Positions 1,757 to 18,357 of a DNA stretch of 18,357 nt are shown here, in pieces. The stretch comes from an uncultured bacterium (lineage in GTDB: Bacteria > Armatimonadota > Hebobacteria > CAIYQO01), in the NCBI GenBank assembly GCA_903928345.1, contig CAIYQO010000315.1:1-18357 (forward strand). The letters run 5' to 3'. The position numbers were made by a program, and so were the translations under genes. The notes beneath the pieces are model-generated. The model was given only the letters and a program-made list of their open reading frames with translations, was not told the DNA's origin and searched no databases. How positions within the stretch are numbered: the first letter of the stretch is position 1; every line of letters starts with the position of its first letter.

Positions 1757-1812
1757 CTACAGGGGCTGTCCCGTGGCGCATTGATAACCTACGCCACGGG
1801 ACAGTCCCTGCA
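1757..1812. repeat. repeat family A hairpin: two inverted family-A copies (19-bp arms, 1 mismatch) around a 13-nt loop
   Basis: ACAGGGGCTGTCCCGTGGCG (1758-1777), loop CATTGATAACCTA, then CGCCACGGGACAGTCCCTGCAG (1791-1812). It lies between the convergent genes at 575..1660 (+) and 1816..2553 (-) and could act as a bidirectional terminator, though no U-tract follows. Confidence 0.7.
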
Positions 1813-8119: not shown

Positions 8120-9271
8120 ATGCTGTCCGGCCGGAGTTTTCGCCTGGGGCGCATCGGCGGCATCACGATCAACATCGACTACACCTGGTTCATCATCTTT
8201 GCACTGTTTGTCTTCCTGCTTGCCACCGCCTACTTCCCCGCGGTGCTGGCGCATGTGCCGCACCCCGCGTCCCCGTTGATGGTGTGGGGCACGGCGGTGC
8301 TCACCAGCGTGCTCTTTTTCGGCTCTGTGCTCGCGCACGAATTGTCCCACTCCTTCGTGGCGCGGCGGCACGGCATCCCCATCAACAGCATCACCCTGTT
8401 TATCTTCGGCGGGGTGGCGCAGATGGAGGACGAGCCGCAGACGCCGGGCGACGAATTCAAGATGGCGATCGCCGGGCCGCTGGCGAGCATTGCCATCGGG
8501 GTGCTCTTCATCATGCTCCTCGCCGGTGCGCACAACGTGCTGCCGCCGCTGGCCAACGCGGCGCTGTGGTATCTGGGCGCCATCAACATCATCCTCGCCG
8601 TCTTCAACCTGTTGCCTGGCTTCCCGCTGGACGGCGGGCGCGTCTTCCGCTCCCTGGTGTGGGCCATCACGCATGACCTGCGCCGCGCCACGCAGATCGC
8701 CTCCATCACCGGGCAGGGGTTCGGGTGGATCTTCATCGTCCTCGGCCTTGCCAGCCTGGTGGTGCCCGTGCTGGGCAAATACATCACGGTGTGGATGGCG
8801 CTGATCGGTTGGTTTTTGGTAAGCGCGGCGCGCAGCAGCTACCAGCAAGTAGTAATGCGCGATACCCTGAGCCACGTGCCGGTGCGCGACGTGATGCACC
8901 CGACCGTGGAGGCCGTGCCCGCCACGCTGTCGGTGCAGCAACTGGTGACGGACTACTTTCTGCGCGGCAGCTCCAGCGCGTTGCCGGTGGAGCTGAACGG
9001 CACGGTGACCGGCGTGGTAGGGGTGGAGGACGTGCAGGCGCTGCCGCGTGACGCGTGGTCGGGCACGCTGGTGAGCGAAATCGCCCGCCCACTCACCCAG
9101 GAGCAAACGCTGCACCCCGACGACGACGCCTGGGCCGCCACCAGCCGCATGGCGCACGGCAACCGCGACCGCGTGCTCATCACCGAAGGCGACCACGTGG
9201 AAGGCATCGTCACCCGCGGCAGCATCCTGCGCTGGTTGCAGACGCATAAGCCGGGGTTCGCGACGGGGTGA
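8120..9271 (+). CDS. site-2 protease family (peptidase M50) membrane metalloprotease with C-terminal CBS domain pair
   Basis: HExxH appears as AHELSHS within a TM region. The second zinc-ligand/LDG motif reads NLLPGFPLDGGRV. There are multiple TM helices. The C-terminal about 130 aa resemble a CBS pair (VRDVMHPTVEAV...; GVVGVEDV...; VEGIVTRGSILRWL). GGAAGGGGG lies 6 nt before the ATG. Confidence 0.85.
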   Translation: MLSGRSFRLGRIGGITINIDYTWFIIFALFVFLLATAYFPAVLAHVPHPASPLMVWGTAVLTSVLFFGSVLAHELSHSFVARRHGIPINSITLFIFGGVAQMEDEPQTPGDEFKMAIAGPLASIAIGVLFIMLLAGAHNVLPPLANAALWYLGAINIILAVFNLLPGFPLDGGRVFRSLVWAITHDLRRATQIASITGQGFGWIFIVLGLASLVVPVLGKYITVWMALIGWFLVSAARSSYQQVVMRDTLSHVPVRDVMHPTVEAVPATLSVQQLVTDYFLRGSSSALPVELNGTVTGVVGVEDVQALPRDAWSGTLVSEIARPLTQEQTLHPDDDAWAATSRMAHGNRDRVLITEGDHVEGIVTRGSILRWLQTHKPGFATG

Positions 9272-9300
9272 GCTTTCCGCCTCTCGCGTGACGTTTATCG

Positions 9301-9355
9301 GTCAGCGTGCCCTCACCCCCCGCCCCCTCTCCCAAAGGGATGAGGGCACGCTGAC
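9301..9355 (+). terminator. 15-bp perfect-stem hairpin with 25-nt C-rich loop, 30 nt after the M50 stop (possible terminator; no U-tract)
   Basis: GTCAGCGTGCCCTCA (9301-9315) pairs with TGAGGGCACGCTGAC (9341-9355). The loop CCCCCCGCCCCCTCTCCCAAAGGGA contains a TCCC/GGGA mini-stem. Confidence 0.4.
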
Positions 9356-9416
9356 GGACAGGCGTCCCAAACAAAACAGCAAAGGCGGTAGTCCCTCTCG
9401 TATAGCAAACATATGC

Positions 9417-9445: not shown

Positions 9446-9514
9446 CCAGCCCTTCCAGGCATGAGGCGGAGGGGCGCCAGTGCCGCGGGGTTCACTTTCG
9501 GGGGGAGGGGAACG

Positions 9515-10249
9515 ATGCGGCAAGAGACGGCGACGCGCCCGTTGACCGATGTGGCGCGGGAGGAGCTGGGGGCGTTCGGCACGCAGGTCTTCGACCTGTG
9601 GCCGGCGGCGCACCACGAGGTGTGGGTGGAGCTGCTAAGCGACCCGCGCCTCAACCGGCTGCTCATCATCGCGCCGCCGGGCCATGCCAAATCCACCTGG
9701 TGCACCATCATCTACCCCGCGTGGCTGGTGGGGCGGCAACCCTCCGTCAATATCCTCCTCGTCTCCGCCACCGCGGCGCAGGCCCGGCTCTTCAGCGCCG
9801 GGGTGCGCGAAGCGGTGGTGGGCAGCCCCGCCTTCGCCGACATCTTCCCGGGTCTCGCGCCCGACCGCAAACGCGGCTGGGGGCAGAACGCGTGGTTCGT
9901 GCAGCGCCCGCCGGATAGCAACAAGGACGCCACTGTGGCCGCCTGCGGGGTAGGCGGGCCGCTCATCGGGCGCCGCGCCGACGTGATCATCGTCGACGAC
10001 CCCTGCGACCAGGCCAACACCACCACCGTAGCGCGCCGCGACAAGCTGTGGCAGTGGTTCCGCCAGACGCTGCTCACCCGTCTGCGCCCCAATGGCCGCG
10101 TGATCGTGGTGATGACCCGCTGGCACGAAGACGACCTGGCCGCCCGCCTGATCCGCAGCGGCGAATTCGCCGTCTGCCACCTGCGCGCCCTCAGCGACGG
10201 CCCCGACGTGCGCGCGACGCTCACCGTGCCGGGGGCGGTGCTGGGGTAG
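9515..10249 (+). pseudogene. phage terminase large subunit, N-terminal ATPase fragment (gene interrupted after the ATPase domain)
   Basis: Walker-A-like LIIAPPGHAKST, Walker B VIIVDDP and the terminase coupling motif TRWHEDDLAARL are present. The frame ends at the TAG at 10247-10249. The rest of the protein continues 128 nt downstream in another frame. Confidence 0.7.
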
Positions 10250-13461: not shown

Positions 13462-13532
13462 GCGGCCGGAGGGGTGGTAGGTGGGGAATGCAAAGTGAAA
13501 AATGGAGAATGGAGAATGCAGAATGGGGGGAC
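13462..13532 (+). repeat. about 70-bp direct repeat, copy 2 (same orientation as 11118-11187)
   Basis: See copy 1. It lies in the spacer between the two minus-strand genes, upstream of the flotillin start. Confidence 0.8.
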
Positions 13533-13550
13533 AACCGCACCCCGTTCGAC

Positions 13551-13578
13551 ATTTTCCATTCTCCATTGTGCATTGCCG
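13551..13578. repeat. inverted partial copy of the NAGAATG heptamer array (CATTTTCCATTCTCCATTGTGCATTGCC)
   Basis: Its reverse complement GGCAATGCACAATGGAGAATGGAAAATG matches AATGCA.A.TG.A.AATGGA.AATG in 13485-13525. With the 25-nt spacer (containing GGGGTGCGGTTGTCCCC) it can form a long imperfect stem-loop just 3' of the 13589..14425 gene on the minus-strand transcript. Confidence 0.55.
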
Positions 13579-14709: not shown

Positions 14710-14756
14710 AACCATGTCAGCGGGAATTAGGACCCCGCTGAAGGGAGGTGTCCCTG

Positions 14757-15152
14757 ATGCGGCACACAGTACTGGTGATAGACGACCAATGGTCCATGCA
14801 AGAGCTGGCTCGCATTGTCCTGCAGACCGCGGGGTTCCGCGTGCTGTTGGCGGGCGACGGCGCCACCGGTCTCAGCCTCGCGCGTACGGAACACCCGGAT
14901 GCCATTCTCCTCGATCTGCGCATGCCCGGCCTCGACGGCCTGGACGTGTTGCGCGTGTTGCGCCAACAGGCGGGCACGGCGGAGATTCCGGTGCTGCTCA
15001 TCACGCCCGATGCCGGCGAAGAGGCCCAGGCGGCCGAACGCCGCGCCGGCACGGCGGAGATCCTGCGCAAGCCCTTCCACCCCCCCGAGCTGCTGCGCGG
15101 CGTGCAAAACCTGCTCGCCCGCCCCACGCTGCCGGTAGCGATGACGGGGTGA
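14757..15152 (+). CDS. stand-alone CheY-like response regulator receiver domain protein
   Basis: REC residues are present: VLVIDD (acidic pocket), LLDLRMPGLDG (phospho-acceptor Asp), LLIT (Thr) and LRKPF (Lys). There is no output domain. AAGGGAGG lies 8 nt upstream of the ATG at 14757. Confidence 0.85.
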   Translation: MRHTVLVIDDQWSMQELARIVLQTAGFRVLLAGDGATGLSLARTEHPDAILLDLRMPGLDGLDVLRVLRQQAGTAEIPVLLITPDAGEEAQAAERRAGTAEILRKPFHPPELLRGVQNLLARPTLPVAMTG

Positions 15153-15170
15153 CCGGTCGCCGACATGCAC

Positions 15171-15325
15171 TTTGGGAGGGCGAGTGTACCCGCGAGCCGC
15201 GCGCGTATGCTCCGCGTTGAAAGCAGAAATGGTCTGTACGTGTGACCGCTCACACGTACAGACCATTCGCGTGTTTCTCTGCGATTGCCTCGCACGCGGC
15301 TCGCGGGTACGCTCGCCCTCCCAAA
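15171..15325. mobile_element. MITE-like / structured element: 31-bp terminal inverted repeats (1 mismatch) enclosing a perfect 14-bp-stem hairpin
   Basis: The left arm TTTGGGAGGGCGAGTGTACCCGCGAGCCGCG (15171-15201) pairs with the right arm CGCGGCTCGCGGGTACGCTCGCCCTCCCAAA (15295-15325). The inner hairpin is GTCTGTACGTGTGA ccgc TCACACGTACAGAC (15232-15263). It starts 19 nt after the response-regulator stop. No target-site duplication is obvious. Confidence 0.4.
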
Positions 15326-15417
15326 GGTTACGAATCCCCTTCCCCGATCACCCCACAAGGTATCCGCCCCGCGACGCCGAAATAAAGGGTAGTTTACCCG
15401 TAAAGGAGCCTTCCCTG

Positions 15418-18240
15418 ATGGTGCGTCGCGTGTGTGTGGTCGTCTTGTTGCTGCTCGCCGGTGTGGCGGTATGGGCGCAGGACGCCAAGATGTTCGAGTA
15501 TCCCGAGCAGTTGGCGCCGTTAAAACTGGACACGGCGGGATCGAAAAAGTGGTCGGCCACGGTGACCAAGCTGGCGCCGGACTTCGGCATCGCCTACCCC
15601 GGCGACGTAGTGACGCTGGAAATTTCACTCAAGAACACCGACACCGTGCCGTTGGCGGTGACGCCGACCGTCGACGTGACGCGCATCAACATGCAGTTCG
15701 AGGGGTACGACTTCACCCGCGGCGACCCGATGATCGGCGGCACGAAGATCAGCATCACCCCGGCGACGCCGGGGATGCGCACGCCGTTGGCCGCGGTGAC
15801 GGTGGCCCCGAACGCGACGGTGAAGCTCCTCTGGTCGCTGCCCAAAGCCTCCGACTGCGCGGCCTATGGCGCCTACGCGGTGATCGTGGACCTGGGGGAG
15901 AAGGGGCGGCAGGCGGCGGGCACCTTTGCACGCGTGCACCCGCCCAACCCGGCGGCGGGCGACGGCAAATCCTCCCCGCTGCTCTACTCCATGTTCTGGC
16001 AGTGGCCCATCGACCAGCAGTGCGCGCTGCTCGCCCGCCTCGGGTACAAGTGGGTACGCACCGACGGCAGCCCCAACTGGGCTTCCGCCAGCCAGCAGGA
16101 TGTCTACGCGCCCTTCGACTGGACGCGTGAGGACGCCTGGATCAAACCCTTCCGCGACAACCACCTGTGGATCCTCAGCAACATGTACGGCTCGCCCGGG
16201 CAGACGGTCACGCAGCCCAACCAGAAGGCCTACAACGTGATCCACGAGGAGAAATACGACGAGCGCATGGGCGAATTCGTGGAAGGTGCCGTGAAGCGCT
16301 ACTGCGGCGAAGACGGCAACGGCCCGCTGCAGACCATCGACTACTACAACGAACCGTGGGAAGGCGGCGGCATCAGCGGGTGGAAGAGCGACTCCGTACG
16401 CTACCGCAAGCTGTACGAAACGATCTACGAGCGTGCCCACAAGGCGAGCAAGTTCATCAAGGTGGGCGGCGCCTCGAGCATCATGAACACGGTCGACAAG
16501 TTCTTCATCATCCCCGACTGGCGCAAGCAGTACGGGATGGACGTGCTCACCGACCACTACGTGCAGCCCTACTGCTGCTTCGGCCCGCGCGTAGCCGACA
16601 CGCTGAAACTGCCTTCCATCGAGACGGAAACGTGGATCGGCAACACGCCGGACAGCCTGATCGCCACCGCCACGCACTTCACCGCGGCGGGACAGCAGCA
16701 GGTGAATCCCAACCACCCGTCGCAGCTCATCTGGGGCGGCAACGGCTCCGGGCCGATGTGCACCCCGGCGGTGGTGGCGGCGAACTATTTCCTCTACTTC
16801 ATCGCCGGCAAACATTTCTCGCGCGTGGTCTTCCTCGACCACCTGCCGTGGCTGTATGAGTGGACGGACGGCAAAACGACGAACTACATCCTGGCCGGCG
16901 ACCGCCACCTGCTCAACGACCAGGCGGTGACGATGTACGACCAGATCCGCGCCGACGGCACGCTGGAGCTGGACTCCCTCAAGGGCAAGCTCAAGGCCAC
17001 CGACGCCTTCGGCAACCTCTACCCGCTGAAGAAGGGCAAATACCTGCTGCCCTGCTCCTACACCTCCGTCTACCTGGACGCGCCCGGCCTCGACCCGGCG
17101 AAGGTCATCGACGCGGTAAGCAAGGCGAAAATGACCGGCGTGAAGCCGGTGGAGATCTTCGCCGACGACTTCACCGCGCCGATCAACAAGGCGAAGACGG
17201 TGGACGTCACCCTGCACAACGTGCTCAACCGCGCGGTCAGCGGCACGCTCACCTTCACCCCGCCGGCGAGTATCAAGCTGACGACGGCGATGCTGGCGGT
17301 GACGCTGGCGGCGGGTGAGGAGAAGCGCTTCAGCCTGCCCATCGCCGGCGCGACGGTGAACCCCGCCAACGCGTACGAATTTACCTACGCCTTCAAAGGC
17401 GACGCGGGCAGCGCCACGCTCAAGGAAGTGCTGCACGTCAACACCCTCACCAAGGGCACGCCGACCATTGACGGCGACCTGAGCGACTGGAACGACGCCG
17501 TGCCGGTGATCACCTTCGGGCAGGACCTGAAGCGTGACCTCGCCGAACGCGCCTGGCGCCCGTGGGAACAGGAGAAGGACGTCACCAAGGGCCTCACCGA
17601 GGTGCGCTTGAAGTGGGACGCCACCAACCTGTACATCGCCGTGCGCGACCGCAACAAGGACTGGTCGACCAAACCGCGCCTCTCCACCCGCAAGGACGAC
17701 GACTACTTCGGCACCGGCGACATGGCGCATACCTACGTGAAAGACATGTGGGACGCGCTACCCTTTACCGGCTCCTGCGTGCAGGTCGGCATCGGCCTGG
17801 GGCTGCATAAGGCGGGCTTCGGCCCGGCGACCACCGCCCCCGCGCGCATGCTGGCCGACGACGACACCGACTACGAATACGACTTCTGGGGCGCGCCCGA
17901 CGGCGGGCTGGAGATCTGGCGCAGCAGCAAGCCGGGCACGGAACTCTTCAACTTCCTGCCGCGCTGCATGCCCGTCGGGTACGACGGCGTGCCCAAGGGC
18001 GCCAAAGGCGTGGTGAAGCGCGTCGGCAACGACACGGTCTACGAGGTGGCCATCCCGCTGGCCGACATGCCCGAGCTGCACCCCGCCGCCGGTGGCACCA
18101 TCCACCTCACCTTCGCCCTGCCCGGCTCCGGCGTGCAATTCGGCGCGGGCCGCAGCCGCACCCGCAGCAACGGCCTCACCCTCAAACCCACCTGGCAGCC
18201 CACGCCCTCGAACGACATTGCGTGGGGGTTTGTGGAATAG
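15418..18240 (+). CDS. secreted multidomain glycoside-hydrolase-like protein (signal peptide; Ig/CARDB-like beta-sandwich; GH5-like TIM barrel with NEP motif; second CARDB-like domain; CBM9-like C-terminal domain)
   Basis: The start was chosen at the ATG at 15418 (MVRRVCVVVLLLLAGVAVWAQDA, a signal peptide) with AAAGGAGC 8 nt upstream; the ORF-track start at 15172 lies inside the inverted-repeat element. The hydrolase-like core reads KWVRTDGSPNW...IDYYNEPWEGG, where NEP is the acid/base motif of GH5-type clan GH-A enzymes. The CBM9-like signature is GTPTIDGDLSDWNDAVPV...LYIAVRDRNKDW. Confidence 0.8.
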   Translation: MVRRVCVVVLLLLAGVAVWAQDAKMFEYPEQLAPLKLDTAGSKKWSATVTKLAPDFGIAYPGDVVTLEISLKNTDTVPLAVTPTVDVTRINMQFEGYDFTRGDPMIGGTKISITPATPGMRTPLAAVTVAPNATVKLLWSLPKASDCAAYGAYAVIVDLGEKGRQAAGTFARVHPPNPAAGDGKSSPLLYSMFWQWPIDQQCALLARLGYKWVRTDGSPNWASASQQDVYAPFDWTREDAWIKPFRDNHLWILSNMYGSPGQTVTQPNQKAYNVIHEEKYDERMGEFVEGAVKRYCGEDGNGPLQTIDYYNEPWEGGGISGWKSDSVRYRKLYETIYERAHKASKFIKVGGASSIMNTVDKFFIIPDWRKQYGMDVLTDHYVQPYCCFGPRVADTLKLPSIETETWIGNTPDSLIATATHFTAAGQQQVNPNHPSQLIWGGNGSGPMCTPAVVAANYFLYFIAGKHFSRVVFLDHLPWLYEWTDGKTTNYILAGDRHLLNDQAVTMYDQIRADGTLELDSLKGKLKATDAFGNLYPLKKGKYLLPCSYTSVYLDAPGLDPAKVIDAVSKAKMTGVKPVEIFADDFTAPINKAKTVDVTLHNVLNRAVSGTLTFTPPASIKLTTAMLAVTLAAGEEKRFSLPIAGATVNPANAYEFTYAFKGDAGSATLKEVLHVNTLTKGTPTIDGDLSDWNDAVPVITFGQDLKRDLAERAWRPWEQEKDVTKGLTEVRLKWDATNLYIAVRDRNKDWSTKPRLSTRKDDDYFGTGDMAHTYVKDMWDALPFTGSCVQVGIGLGLHKAGFGPATTAPARMLADDDTDYEYDFWGAPDGGLEIWRSSKPGTELFNFLPRCMPVGYDGVPKGAKGVVKRVGNDTVYEVAIPLADMPELHPAAGGTIHLTFALPGSGVQFGAGRSRTRSNGLTLKPTWQPTPSNDIAWGFVE

Positions 18241-18245
18241 AAAAC

Positions 18246-18267
18246 CTGTAGGGACTGTCCCGTAACG
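18246..18267. repeat. repeat family A copy (CTGTAGGGACTGTCCCGTAACG), 6 nt after the stop of the hydrolase gene
   Basis: Same motif as 1671-1691. Confidence 0.7.
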
Positions 18268-18333: not shown

Positions 18334-18357
18334 CTGCAGGGGCTGTCCCGTGGCGGA
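18334..18357. repeat. repeat family A copy (CTGCAGGGGCTGTCCCGTGGCGGA), truncated by the window end
   Basis: It matches 1758-1777 (the left arm of the 1757-1812 hairpin). It lies 66 nt after the previous copy, the same spacing as at 1671/1757. Confidence 0.7.

Follow-up and report, generated by a model that had tools for sequence, protein, structure and literature searches.

Contig CAIYQO010000315.1, a complete contig of 18,357 nt that we refer to as the window, carries a palindromic element of 157 nt between a gene for a single-domain response regulator and a gene for a 940-aa protein. This element is very probably a doublet of repetitive extragenic palindromic (REP) sequences, of the type called REPINs or bacterial interspersed mosaic elements (BIMEs). 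It would belong to a repeat family associated with REP-associated tyrosine transposases (RAYTs) and contain a structured 99-nt spacer. The element starts 17 nt past the TGA of the regulator gene (15150-15152) and ends 91 nt ahead of the ATG of the next gene (15418). The features of the locus are as follows, with handles such as L002 denoting loci that we fetched.

The palindrome at 15170-15326

15170..15326, no strand: whole element, 157 nt, a probable REP doublet (REPIN-like) forming a single long imperfect hairpin; the inverted repeats, the folds and the homology with L002 end exactly here
15170..15205, plus strand: left extended arm, 36 nt, made up of the REP unit, an outer CTTT and an inner GCGCGCG; the extension is common to L002
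15174..15198, plus strand: left REP unit, GGGAGGGCGAGTGTACCCGCGAGCC, with one mismatch to the family consensus (T at 15185), delimited by motif scan, family logo and unit fold; its sub-parts are the foot GGGAGG (15174-15179), the arms (15180-15186 and 15191-15197) and the loop TACC (15187-15190)
15199..15297, no strand: structured spacer between the REP units, 99 nt; the sole other spacer of this type is that of L002 (100 nt)
15228..15267, no strand: inner perfect hairpin, with an 18-bp stem (15228-15245 with 15250-15267) and the loop CCGC
15291..15326, minus strand: right extended arm, 36 nt
15298..15322, minus strand: right REP unit, an exact copy of the 25-nt consensus
14757..15152, plus strand: upstream gene for a single-domain response regulator (receiver domain only, Pfam PF00072), 131 aa; context, not element
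15418..18240, plus strand: downstream gene for a 940-aa conserved hypothetical protein with no family assignment; context, not element

An inverted-repeat search placed the outer arms at 15170-15205 and 15291-15326, where they are 94% complementary and separated by 85 nt. The initial annotation had described a 155-bp element with 31-bp terminal repeats that differ at one position. The element is present as claimed, with a real extent of 157 nt, and the 31-bp repeats lie inside the 36-nt arms. The perfect nested hairpin was also correctly recognized, but its stem, given as 14 bp at 15232-15263, measures 18 bp. Similarly, the location between the two genes held, while the distances of 19 and 92 nt become 17 and 91 nt for the extended element. 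Each arm is unique in the window, where chance would supply 0.00-0.01 matches.

The palindrome folds far beyond chance on both strands. The predicted RNA fold of 15153-15417 has an energy of -139.4 kcal/mol on the plus strand (z -10.4) and -153.6 kcal/mol on the minus strand (z -11.1), and as single-stranded DNA, 15165-15331 folds with -77.2 kcal/mol (z -14.2). None of 200 shuffled sequences folded as well in any of the three cases. When the inner hairpin was searched for as a second, nested repeat family, the 0.8 Mb of fetched loci yielded chance-level partial matches only.

A dispersed repeat family and its RAYT genes

Each arm of the element contains one copy of a sharply bounded motif of 25-27 nt, (c)GGGAGGGCGAGCGTACCCGCGAGCC(g). 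In the family logo, built from 201 unique instances, positions 2-25 are conserved at 88-100% and the flanks carry essentially no information. The variant in the window consists of the foot GGGAGG, the arm GCGAGCG, the loop TACC, and the arm CGCGAGC. It is predicted to fold as GGC..GCG-TACC-CGC..GCC, with a 2x2 G.A/A.G internal loop that forms a tandem mismatch in the stem. Where the unit varies, it does so mainly at positions 15 and 17, which belong to the predicted loop.

The repeat occurs well beyond the window. In a collection of species-representative genomes, a 20-nt arm pattern was found at six loci in four metagenome-assembled genomes (MAGs), whose record titles name Planctomycetales (2 contigs), Hydrogenedentota (2 contigs), Lentisphaerae, and an unclassified bin; the Lentisphaerae contig is 134 kb long and has 47% G+C. 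A 21-mer from the motif core matched at least 120 metagenome contigs. With as many as 4 mismatches permitted, we counted 234 copies in 126 fetched loci plus the window, carried in DNA of 47-70% G+C. Copies lie on different contigs of single MAGs (L001 and L004; L003 and L005), and one contig (L098) holds as many as seven. Searches of plasmid and viral collections returned no match for either the element or the motif.

These copies take several forms. We found solo units, a few doublets with the feet pointing inward, tandem arrays with periods of 18, 33, and 50 nt, and 63 distinct inverted doublets with the feet pointing outward, whose spacers of 18-192 nt group into spacer families. One array, at L041 (1519-1651), repeats the first 18 nt of the unit (GGGAGGGCGAGCGTACCC, ~7 copies) with an 18-nt period and ends in a full unit. 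The motif string matched only unrelated eukaryotic primers in the searchable literature, and it was not in the supplementary files of two main REP surveys (one of them PMC3733652), both of which are absence of evidence only. The family seems to be undescribed; the class of miniature mobile DNA is known and ordinary.

The repeat is largely extragenic. Although 82% of the DNA was called coding, 80% of 137 motifs fell outside the gene calls, which were crude and based on G+C content at third codon positions (GC3). A longest-open-reading-frame test was dropped as too noisy in G+C-rich DNA. Only one of 47 motif clusters lay deep inside a gene. Clusters were found between tandem (27), convergent (10), and divergent (9) genes in roughly the proportions of background adjacent gene pairs (192, 54, and 44), and solo copies had no transcription-linked orientation. 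The placement of the motif in L004, L005, and the window had suggested a promoter or operator ~65-100 nt upstream of start codons. We rejected this idea because, in a census of contexts, the motif favored no particular position or orientation.

Doublets recur at unrelated sites as complete units that include the spacer. The 11 copies of an 85-nt doublet have a median identity of 86% including the spacer, compared to 57% in their flanks, which is about chance level. Homology between the window element (157 nt) and that of L002 (158 nt) covers the full length of both, and the flanks are unrelated. The alignment of the two elements starts at CTTTGGGAGGG and ends at CCCTCCCAAA(G/C); the flanks are ...GACATGCA / element / GTTACGAA... 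in the window and ...GGAAAA / element / GTGTTC... in L002. The inner hairpin is kept structurally in L002, where the 18 aligned pairs include 4 compensatory double changes, 1 G.T wobble, and 1 mismatch. The initial annotation had advised looking for target-site duplications, and none was present: we detected no direct repeat around the element in the window, L002, or L003.

Long palindromes like this one break short-read assemblies. L127, a 720-nt contig assembled independently from sample ERZ18626419, matches the left half of the window element identically and breaks off at the inner hairpin, in its left arm. Across the family, the motif lay within 100 nt of a contig end in 18 of 69 whole contigs, compared to 5.7 expected.

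Copies of the repeat surround transposase genes. At L098 and L022, repeat arrays bracket an open reading frame (ORF) with DHVH (HUH) and YVRNNP motifs. The L098 ORF (1955-2380) scores 91.6 bits on the NCBIfam model NF047646, "REP-associated tyrosine transposase" (cut-off 80), and 20.7 bits on the IS200 model NF033573, below its cut-off of 55. It also exceeds the cut-off of the Pfam Y1_Tnp model (24.7 vs 23). Its best match in the PDB is E. coli TnpArep (4ER8, E 3.4e-11), while IS200-type transposases in the PDB match with E 0.25 or worse. Using tblastn over the fetched loci, which had been fetched by repeat and not by protein, we found six more homologues. Thus, RAYT genes are directly flanked by the motif at seven independent loci (L098, L042, L095, L056, L086, L022, and L088). 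At L042, for example, a doublet at 876/932 is followed by a RAYT gene at 1004-1423 and a second doublet at 1430/1483; at L056, doublets at 9349/9400 and 9912/9957 enclose a RAYT gene at 9484-9903.

A protein search with the RAYT returned a family of at least 197 homologues, some of which carry the JGI name "REP element-mobilizing transposase RayT". The named homologues come from MAGs of Planctomycetaceae, Armatimonadetes, Lacunisphaera, Chthoniobacterales, and Deltaproteobacteria. Most of 120 homologues contain the motifs PDH[VIL]H, WQ, and YVRxNP. In the reverse test, all five RAYT homologues that we fetched by protein (L131-L135) were bracketed by inverted sister repeats. These have a common layout, consisting of a foot of GGAGG or GGGAGG, a stem of 6-7 nt, a loop of the CTCC type, and the return stem, and differ from one another in their stems.

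Sister repeat 1: GGGAGG-GCGAGGC-TCCC-GCCGAGC
Sister repeat 2: GGAGG-GTCACG-CTCCGT-CGTGAC
Sister repeat 3: GGAGG-GTCGG..CCGAC
Sister repeat 4: GGGAGG-GCTCGGC-TCCT-GCCGAGC
Sister repeat 5: GGGAGG-GCCAAG-CTCCGC-CTTGGC

As all five show this design, a GGAGG foot followed by a stem-loop is shared by the repeats of this RAYT clade. P0137, which we had considered as the RAYT of the Lentisphaerae contig, was rejected for that role, as it lies on a different contig; it is likewise flanked by a sister REP.

Some copies of the repeats are translated. At L022, four tandem 33-nt REP copies (1031-1155) lie in frame inside the RAYT gene, between the HUH and Tyr motifs, and are translated as AARVDARPPVD repeats. 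In-frame insertions of REPs into RAYT genes have been reported before (PMC6006769). In the RAYT homologues P0095, P0112, P0117, and P0124, N-terminally extended gene calls translate sister REPs (WEGEAPAEP, GSAGASPS, and LGRSLALP). Translated REPs like these probably contribute spurious "hypothetical protein" sequence to MAGs of the Planctomycetes-Verrucomicrobia-Chlamydiae (PVC) group.

Proposed mechanism and alternative explanations

The sequences show a repeat with many dispersed, extragenic copies, complete doublets with their spacers at unrelated sites, and RAYT genes that lie between inverted copies. Passages of two papers (PMC3116915, PMC3337134) describe REPINs as non-autonomous elements in which two inverted REPs and a spacer form a hairpin, and as flanking RAYT genes. 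Dimers of REPs with spacers of 20-100 bp, which are often conserved and in some cases contain stem-loops, have been reported to form a stable hairpin over the whole dimer (Di Nocera et al., 2013, PMC3733652). Judged by its sequence, our element is a non-autonomous element of a HUH transposase. It would consist of two inverted 25-27-nt units with their conserved GGGAGG feet outward and, between them, a spacer with its own 18-bp hairpin.

By analogy with known systems, a RAYT (TnpA-REP; an HUH/Y1 single-stranded DNA endonuclease) encoded elsewhere in the genome would recognize the foot and stem-loop on single-stranded DNA, for example at a replication fork. It could then cut and rejoin the single strand, such that the doublet is copied or moved in trans and no target-site duplication arises. 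In the window, the doublet most likely arrived as a passenger in the 108-nt gap that separates the regulator gene from its downstream neighbor. Should these two genes be co-transcribed, the stable hairpin could incidentally impede read-through or protect the 3′ end of the upstream mRNA, as REPs do in E. coli, making a side effect on read-through or mRNA stability possible.

Several observations weigh against interpreting the element as a RAYT-mobilized REP doublet. The transposition of the family is itself an inference, by analogy with E. coli TnpA-REP and IS200/IS605. The window holds a single doublet in 18 kb, and tblastn with the RAYT protein found no RAYT gene in its 18,357 nt. The subtype with a long spacer (~100 nt) was found only twice, in the window and in L002. 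A canonical REP has the tetranucleotide GT[AG]G 0-2 nt 5′ of the hairpin foot (PMC6006769), whereas the 5′ foot of our repeat is GGGAGG(G), that is, GGAG, and the positions upstream of it are unconserved. The hairpin of a lone unit is weak, with -5.2 kcal/mol as DNA and a z score of +0.39, no better than shuffled sequences; sister repeats fold significantly (z -5.7 and -3.3). Two of the associated RAYTs look inactive: that of L056 (9484-9903) has H-L-P in place of HUH, and that of L088 (2488-2763, minus strand), which is the same protein apart from an internal deletion, lacks the HUH region. Lastly, in this small sample the REP variant does not track RAYT phylogeny. RAYTs beside the exact window-type repeat are 42-66% identical to each other and 40-61% identical to RAYTs beside other variants.

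Of the alternatives, the one that survives best, although we consider it improbable, is an RNA structure dedicated to cis-regulation, which as an attenuator, a terminator, or a hairpin for processing or stability would gate read-through from the regulator gene into the downstream gene. The element does lie between co-directional genes, 17 nt past a stop codon, the transcript hairpin would be extremely stable, and no sigma-70-like promoter was predicted between the element and the ATG at 15418. REPs have also been reported to terminate transcription, stabilize mRNA, and affect translation (PMC6006769). However, neither the motif nor the element occurs beside the three genes most similar to the downstream gene (79%, 63%, and 61% identity), whose upstream neighbors also differ; these loci are not syntenic with the window and so document the absence of the element, not an empty site. 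When the proximal upstream regions were aligned, similarity was weak and reached back only ~60-70 nt from the ATG, short of the position of the element. No T/U run follows the hairpin on the plus strand, where the stem gives way to GGTTACGAATCCCC, and no plus-strand terminator-like site was found at the element. Moreover, the element folds equally well on either strand, and the family as a whole follows the background distribution of tandem, convergent, and divergent gene pairs, with solo units showing no transcription-linked orientation.

Rfam likewise offered no support for a dedicated RNA. The whole window had no match at gathering score, and at E<=10 the region 15050-15500 matched generic miRNA-hairpin models only, with 17-32 bits against thresholds of 59-100. 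Neither of the two RNA-based suggestions of the initial annotation, a transcriptional attenuator and a structured RNA, is therefore sustained as the primary identity of the element. Attenuation is possible as an incidental effect of a REP insertion and unlikely as the reason for the existence of the element.

A second alternative, to which we give still less credence, is that a host protein, such as a nucleoid-associated protein, gyrase, or a regulator, binds the motif and thereby keeps it conserved, and that the link to RAYTs is secondary. The edges of the motif are very sharp, and its 25 nt are near-invariant over a range of 47-70% G+C and in MAGs assigned to three phyla. The repeat is conserved even though the associated RAYTs are only 42-66% mutually identical, and the unit holds a direct GCGAGC repeat, 12 nt apart. 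In E. coli, REPs and BIMEs bind IHF, gyrase, and DNA polymerase I (PMC6006769). Nonetheless, we found no candidate binding protein, the motif has no positional preference relative to genes, and the tight, recurrent association with RAYTs, together with the sister repeats around RAYT homologues, explains the pattern of conservation by itself. A host binding site is in any case compatible with a RAYT-associated REP doublet and does not exclude it.

The initial annotation also proposed a miniature inverted-repeat transposable element (MITE). It was right insofar as this is a short, non-coding inverted-repeat family dispersed over unrelated sites, and the 36-nt near-perfect terminal inverted repeats fit that description. 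A classical MITE, however, is a deletion derivative of an insertion sequence (IS) with a DDE transposase and moves by cut-and-paste via its terminal inverted repeats. We regard this origin as very unlikely and favor a REP doublet because there is no target-site duplication, because the would-be terminal repeat also occurs solo, in head-to-tail arrays, and in reverse pairing order, and because the enzyme is an HUH/Y1 RAYT and not a DDE transposase. This last point rests on the RAYT genes bracketed by the motif, which we found by tblastn with the RAYT protein; no screen of the loci was aimed at DDE enzymes. The lack of matches in plasmid and viral collections also speaks against a MITE.

Finally, the least credible of the alternatives is a fold-back chimera or another artefact of the assembly or the library, and the element is not one. 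Chimeric reads can yield long palindromes, and the L127 contig of the second assembly breaks inside the hairpin. However, the palindrome is imperfect, its internal segments are asymmetric, and the genes on its two sides are intact and unlike each other. In addition, L127 has an exact copy of the left half, and another MAG (L002) has a homologous element with compensatory changes.

We propose that the element be annotated as a REP/REPIN-type repeat and not as a riboswitch, small RNA, or MITE, and that the hairpin be remembered when operon structure or assembly breaks are read at this locus. The repeats also explain a nuisance in MAGs of the PVC group, where contigs break at repeats and spurious peptides such as WEGEAPAEP and GSAGASPS appear. 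To our knowledge, nearly all work on REP-RAYT systems has dealt with Proteobacteria. A family whose units have a GGAG foot and a stem with G.A mismatches, and whose copies are almost identical across several phyla, would help in examining what a RAYT recognizes and whether inheritance of REP populations is always vertical.

More speculatively, the repeat may represent a superfamily of GGAG-footed REPs that has so far gone undescribed and has a RAYT clade of its own (PDH[VIL]H / WQ / YVRxNP), with one 25-nt variant near-invariant in MAGs assigned to three phyla (Planctomycetota, Hydrogenedentota, and Lentisphaerae). We offer this wider proposal tentatively and hold it to be doubtful. If true, it would run against the view of REPs as species-specific (PMC6006769), and would imply either repeated spread of REPs and RAYTs between phyla or a strong constraint on the repeat, through recognition by the enzyme or a function in the host.

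Neighboring features and comparison with known systems

The upstream gene encodes a response regulator, as first annotated, with a receiver domain (PF00072) and no other domain. The downstream gene had been labeled a hydrolase. As the 940-aa protein has no Pfam match even at E<=1 and no sequence match in the PDB, this label is unsupported. Its homologues carry Planctomycetes or Planctomycetota labels. The two genes have similar ribosome-binding and start contexts, AAGGGAGGTGTCCCTGATG and AAAGGAGCCTTCCCTGATG (14738-14759 and 15400-15420).

The window contains other repeats. A second, unrelated family, CAGGGACTGTCCCGTGGCG, is present in five copies, compared to 0.03 expected, at 1673-1691, 1760-1778, 1792-1810 (minus strand), 18249-18267, and 18337-18355. 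It has the same layout after two gene ends (those of the gene at 575-1660 and the 940-aa gene), and its last copy is cut off by the end of the contig. This family was not found in any fetched locus. Between two minus-strand genes, an inverted repeat at 13496-13572 has 33-nt arms (82% complementary) with AATGGAGA-like units and looks like a terminator, given the T-run that follows it on the minus strand. Another, at 9290-9366, has 30-nt arms (83% complementary) and directly follows a gene ending at 9271, with no T-run after it.

The element resembles MITEs of DDE-type insertion sequences and the miniature derivatives of IS200/IS605 in being a small, non-autonomous palindromic unit with a transposase that would act in trans. 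Unlike DDE-IS MITEs, it has no target-site duplication, and we saw no DDE enzyme, though no DDE-aimed screen was made. As in IS200/IS605, the enzyme gene lies between two hairpin-forming ends. The RAYT nevertheless falls below the IS200 cut-off (20.7 vs 55 bits) and above the RAYT cut-off.

Among described RAYTs, those of subclass 2.4 (NH[IFV]H / WQ / YIxNNP; Quentin et al., 2018, PMC6006769) have key motifs similar to those found here (PDH[VIL]H / WQ / YVRxNP), in a comparison made by motifs and not by phylogeny. They differ in having N where our RAYTs have D before the HuH, and in the GT[AG]G feet of their REPs.

REP families have been reported in Planctomycetes and Verrucomicrobia (PMC3733652). 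Like the GTAG- and CGTC-tagged REP dimers of that survey, our element has a structured spacer, and the whole dimer is predicted to form a stable hairpin. Unlike the repeats of Di Nocera et al. (2013), it carries a tag other than GTAG or CGTC, and this tag also departs from the GGGGWSAS reported for the terminal inverted repeats of TIRYT genes. With a foot of GGAG and not GT[AG]G, the element stands outside the GTAG-tagged superfamily.

The system of REPs, BIMEs, and TnpA-REP in E. coli (PDB 4ER8; REPtron) is similar in several respects. Among solved structures, TnpArep is the closest to the family RAYT (E 3.4e-11), which has HUH (DHVH), WQ, and YxxxNP motifs. In both, the RAYT gene lies between inverted REP pairs, and the repeats occur as solos, inverted pairs, and clusters. 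Sequence identity to E. coli TnpA-REP is low, the guide tetranucleotide is a different one, and our RAYT clade is known from sequence.

The closest parallel is with the REPINs and RAYTs of Pseudomonas fluorescens SBW25, as portrayed in passages of the papers describing them (Bertels and Rainey, 2011, PMC3116915; PMC3337134). There, too, inverted REPs and a spacer form one hairpin, doublets stand at unrelated extragenic sites without a target-site duplication, and the elements are non-autonomous, with a cognate HUH/Y1 gene that is flanked by repeats. In contrast to the SBW25 REPINs, our family has the foot GGAG(G) instead of GT[AG]G, a unit stem with a tandem G.A mismatch that is weak on its own, and, in the window, a 99-nt spacer with a separate perfect 18-bp hairpin. 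Furthermore, MAGs assigned to three phyla share the 25-mer of our family, whereas descriptions of REPINs have them inherited vertically and specific to a lineage.

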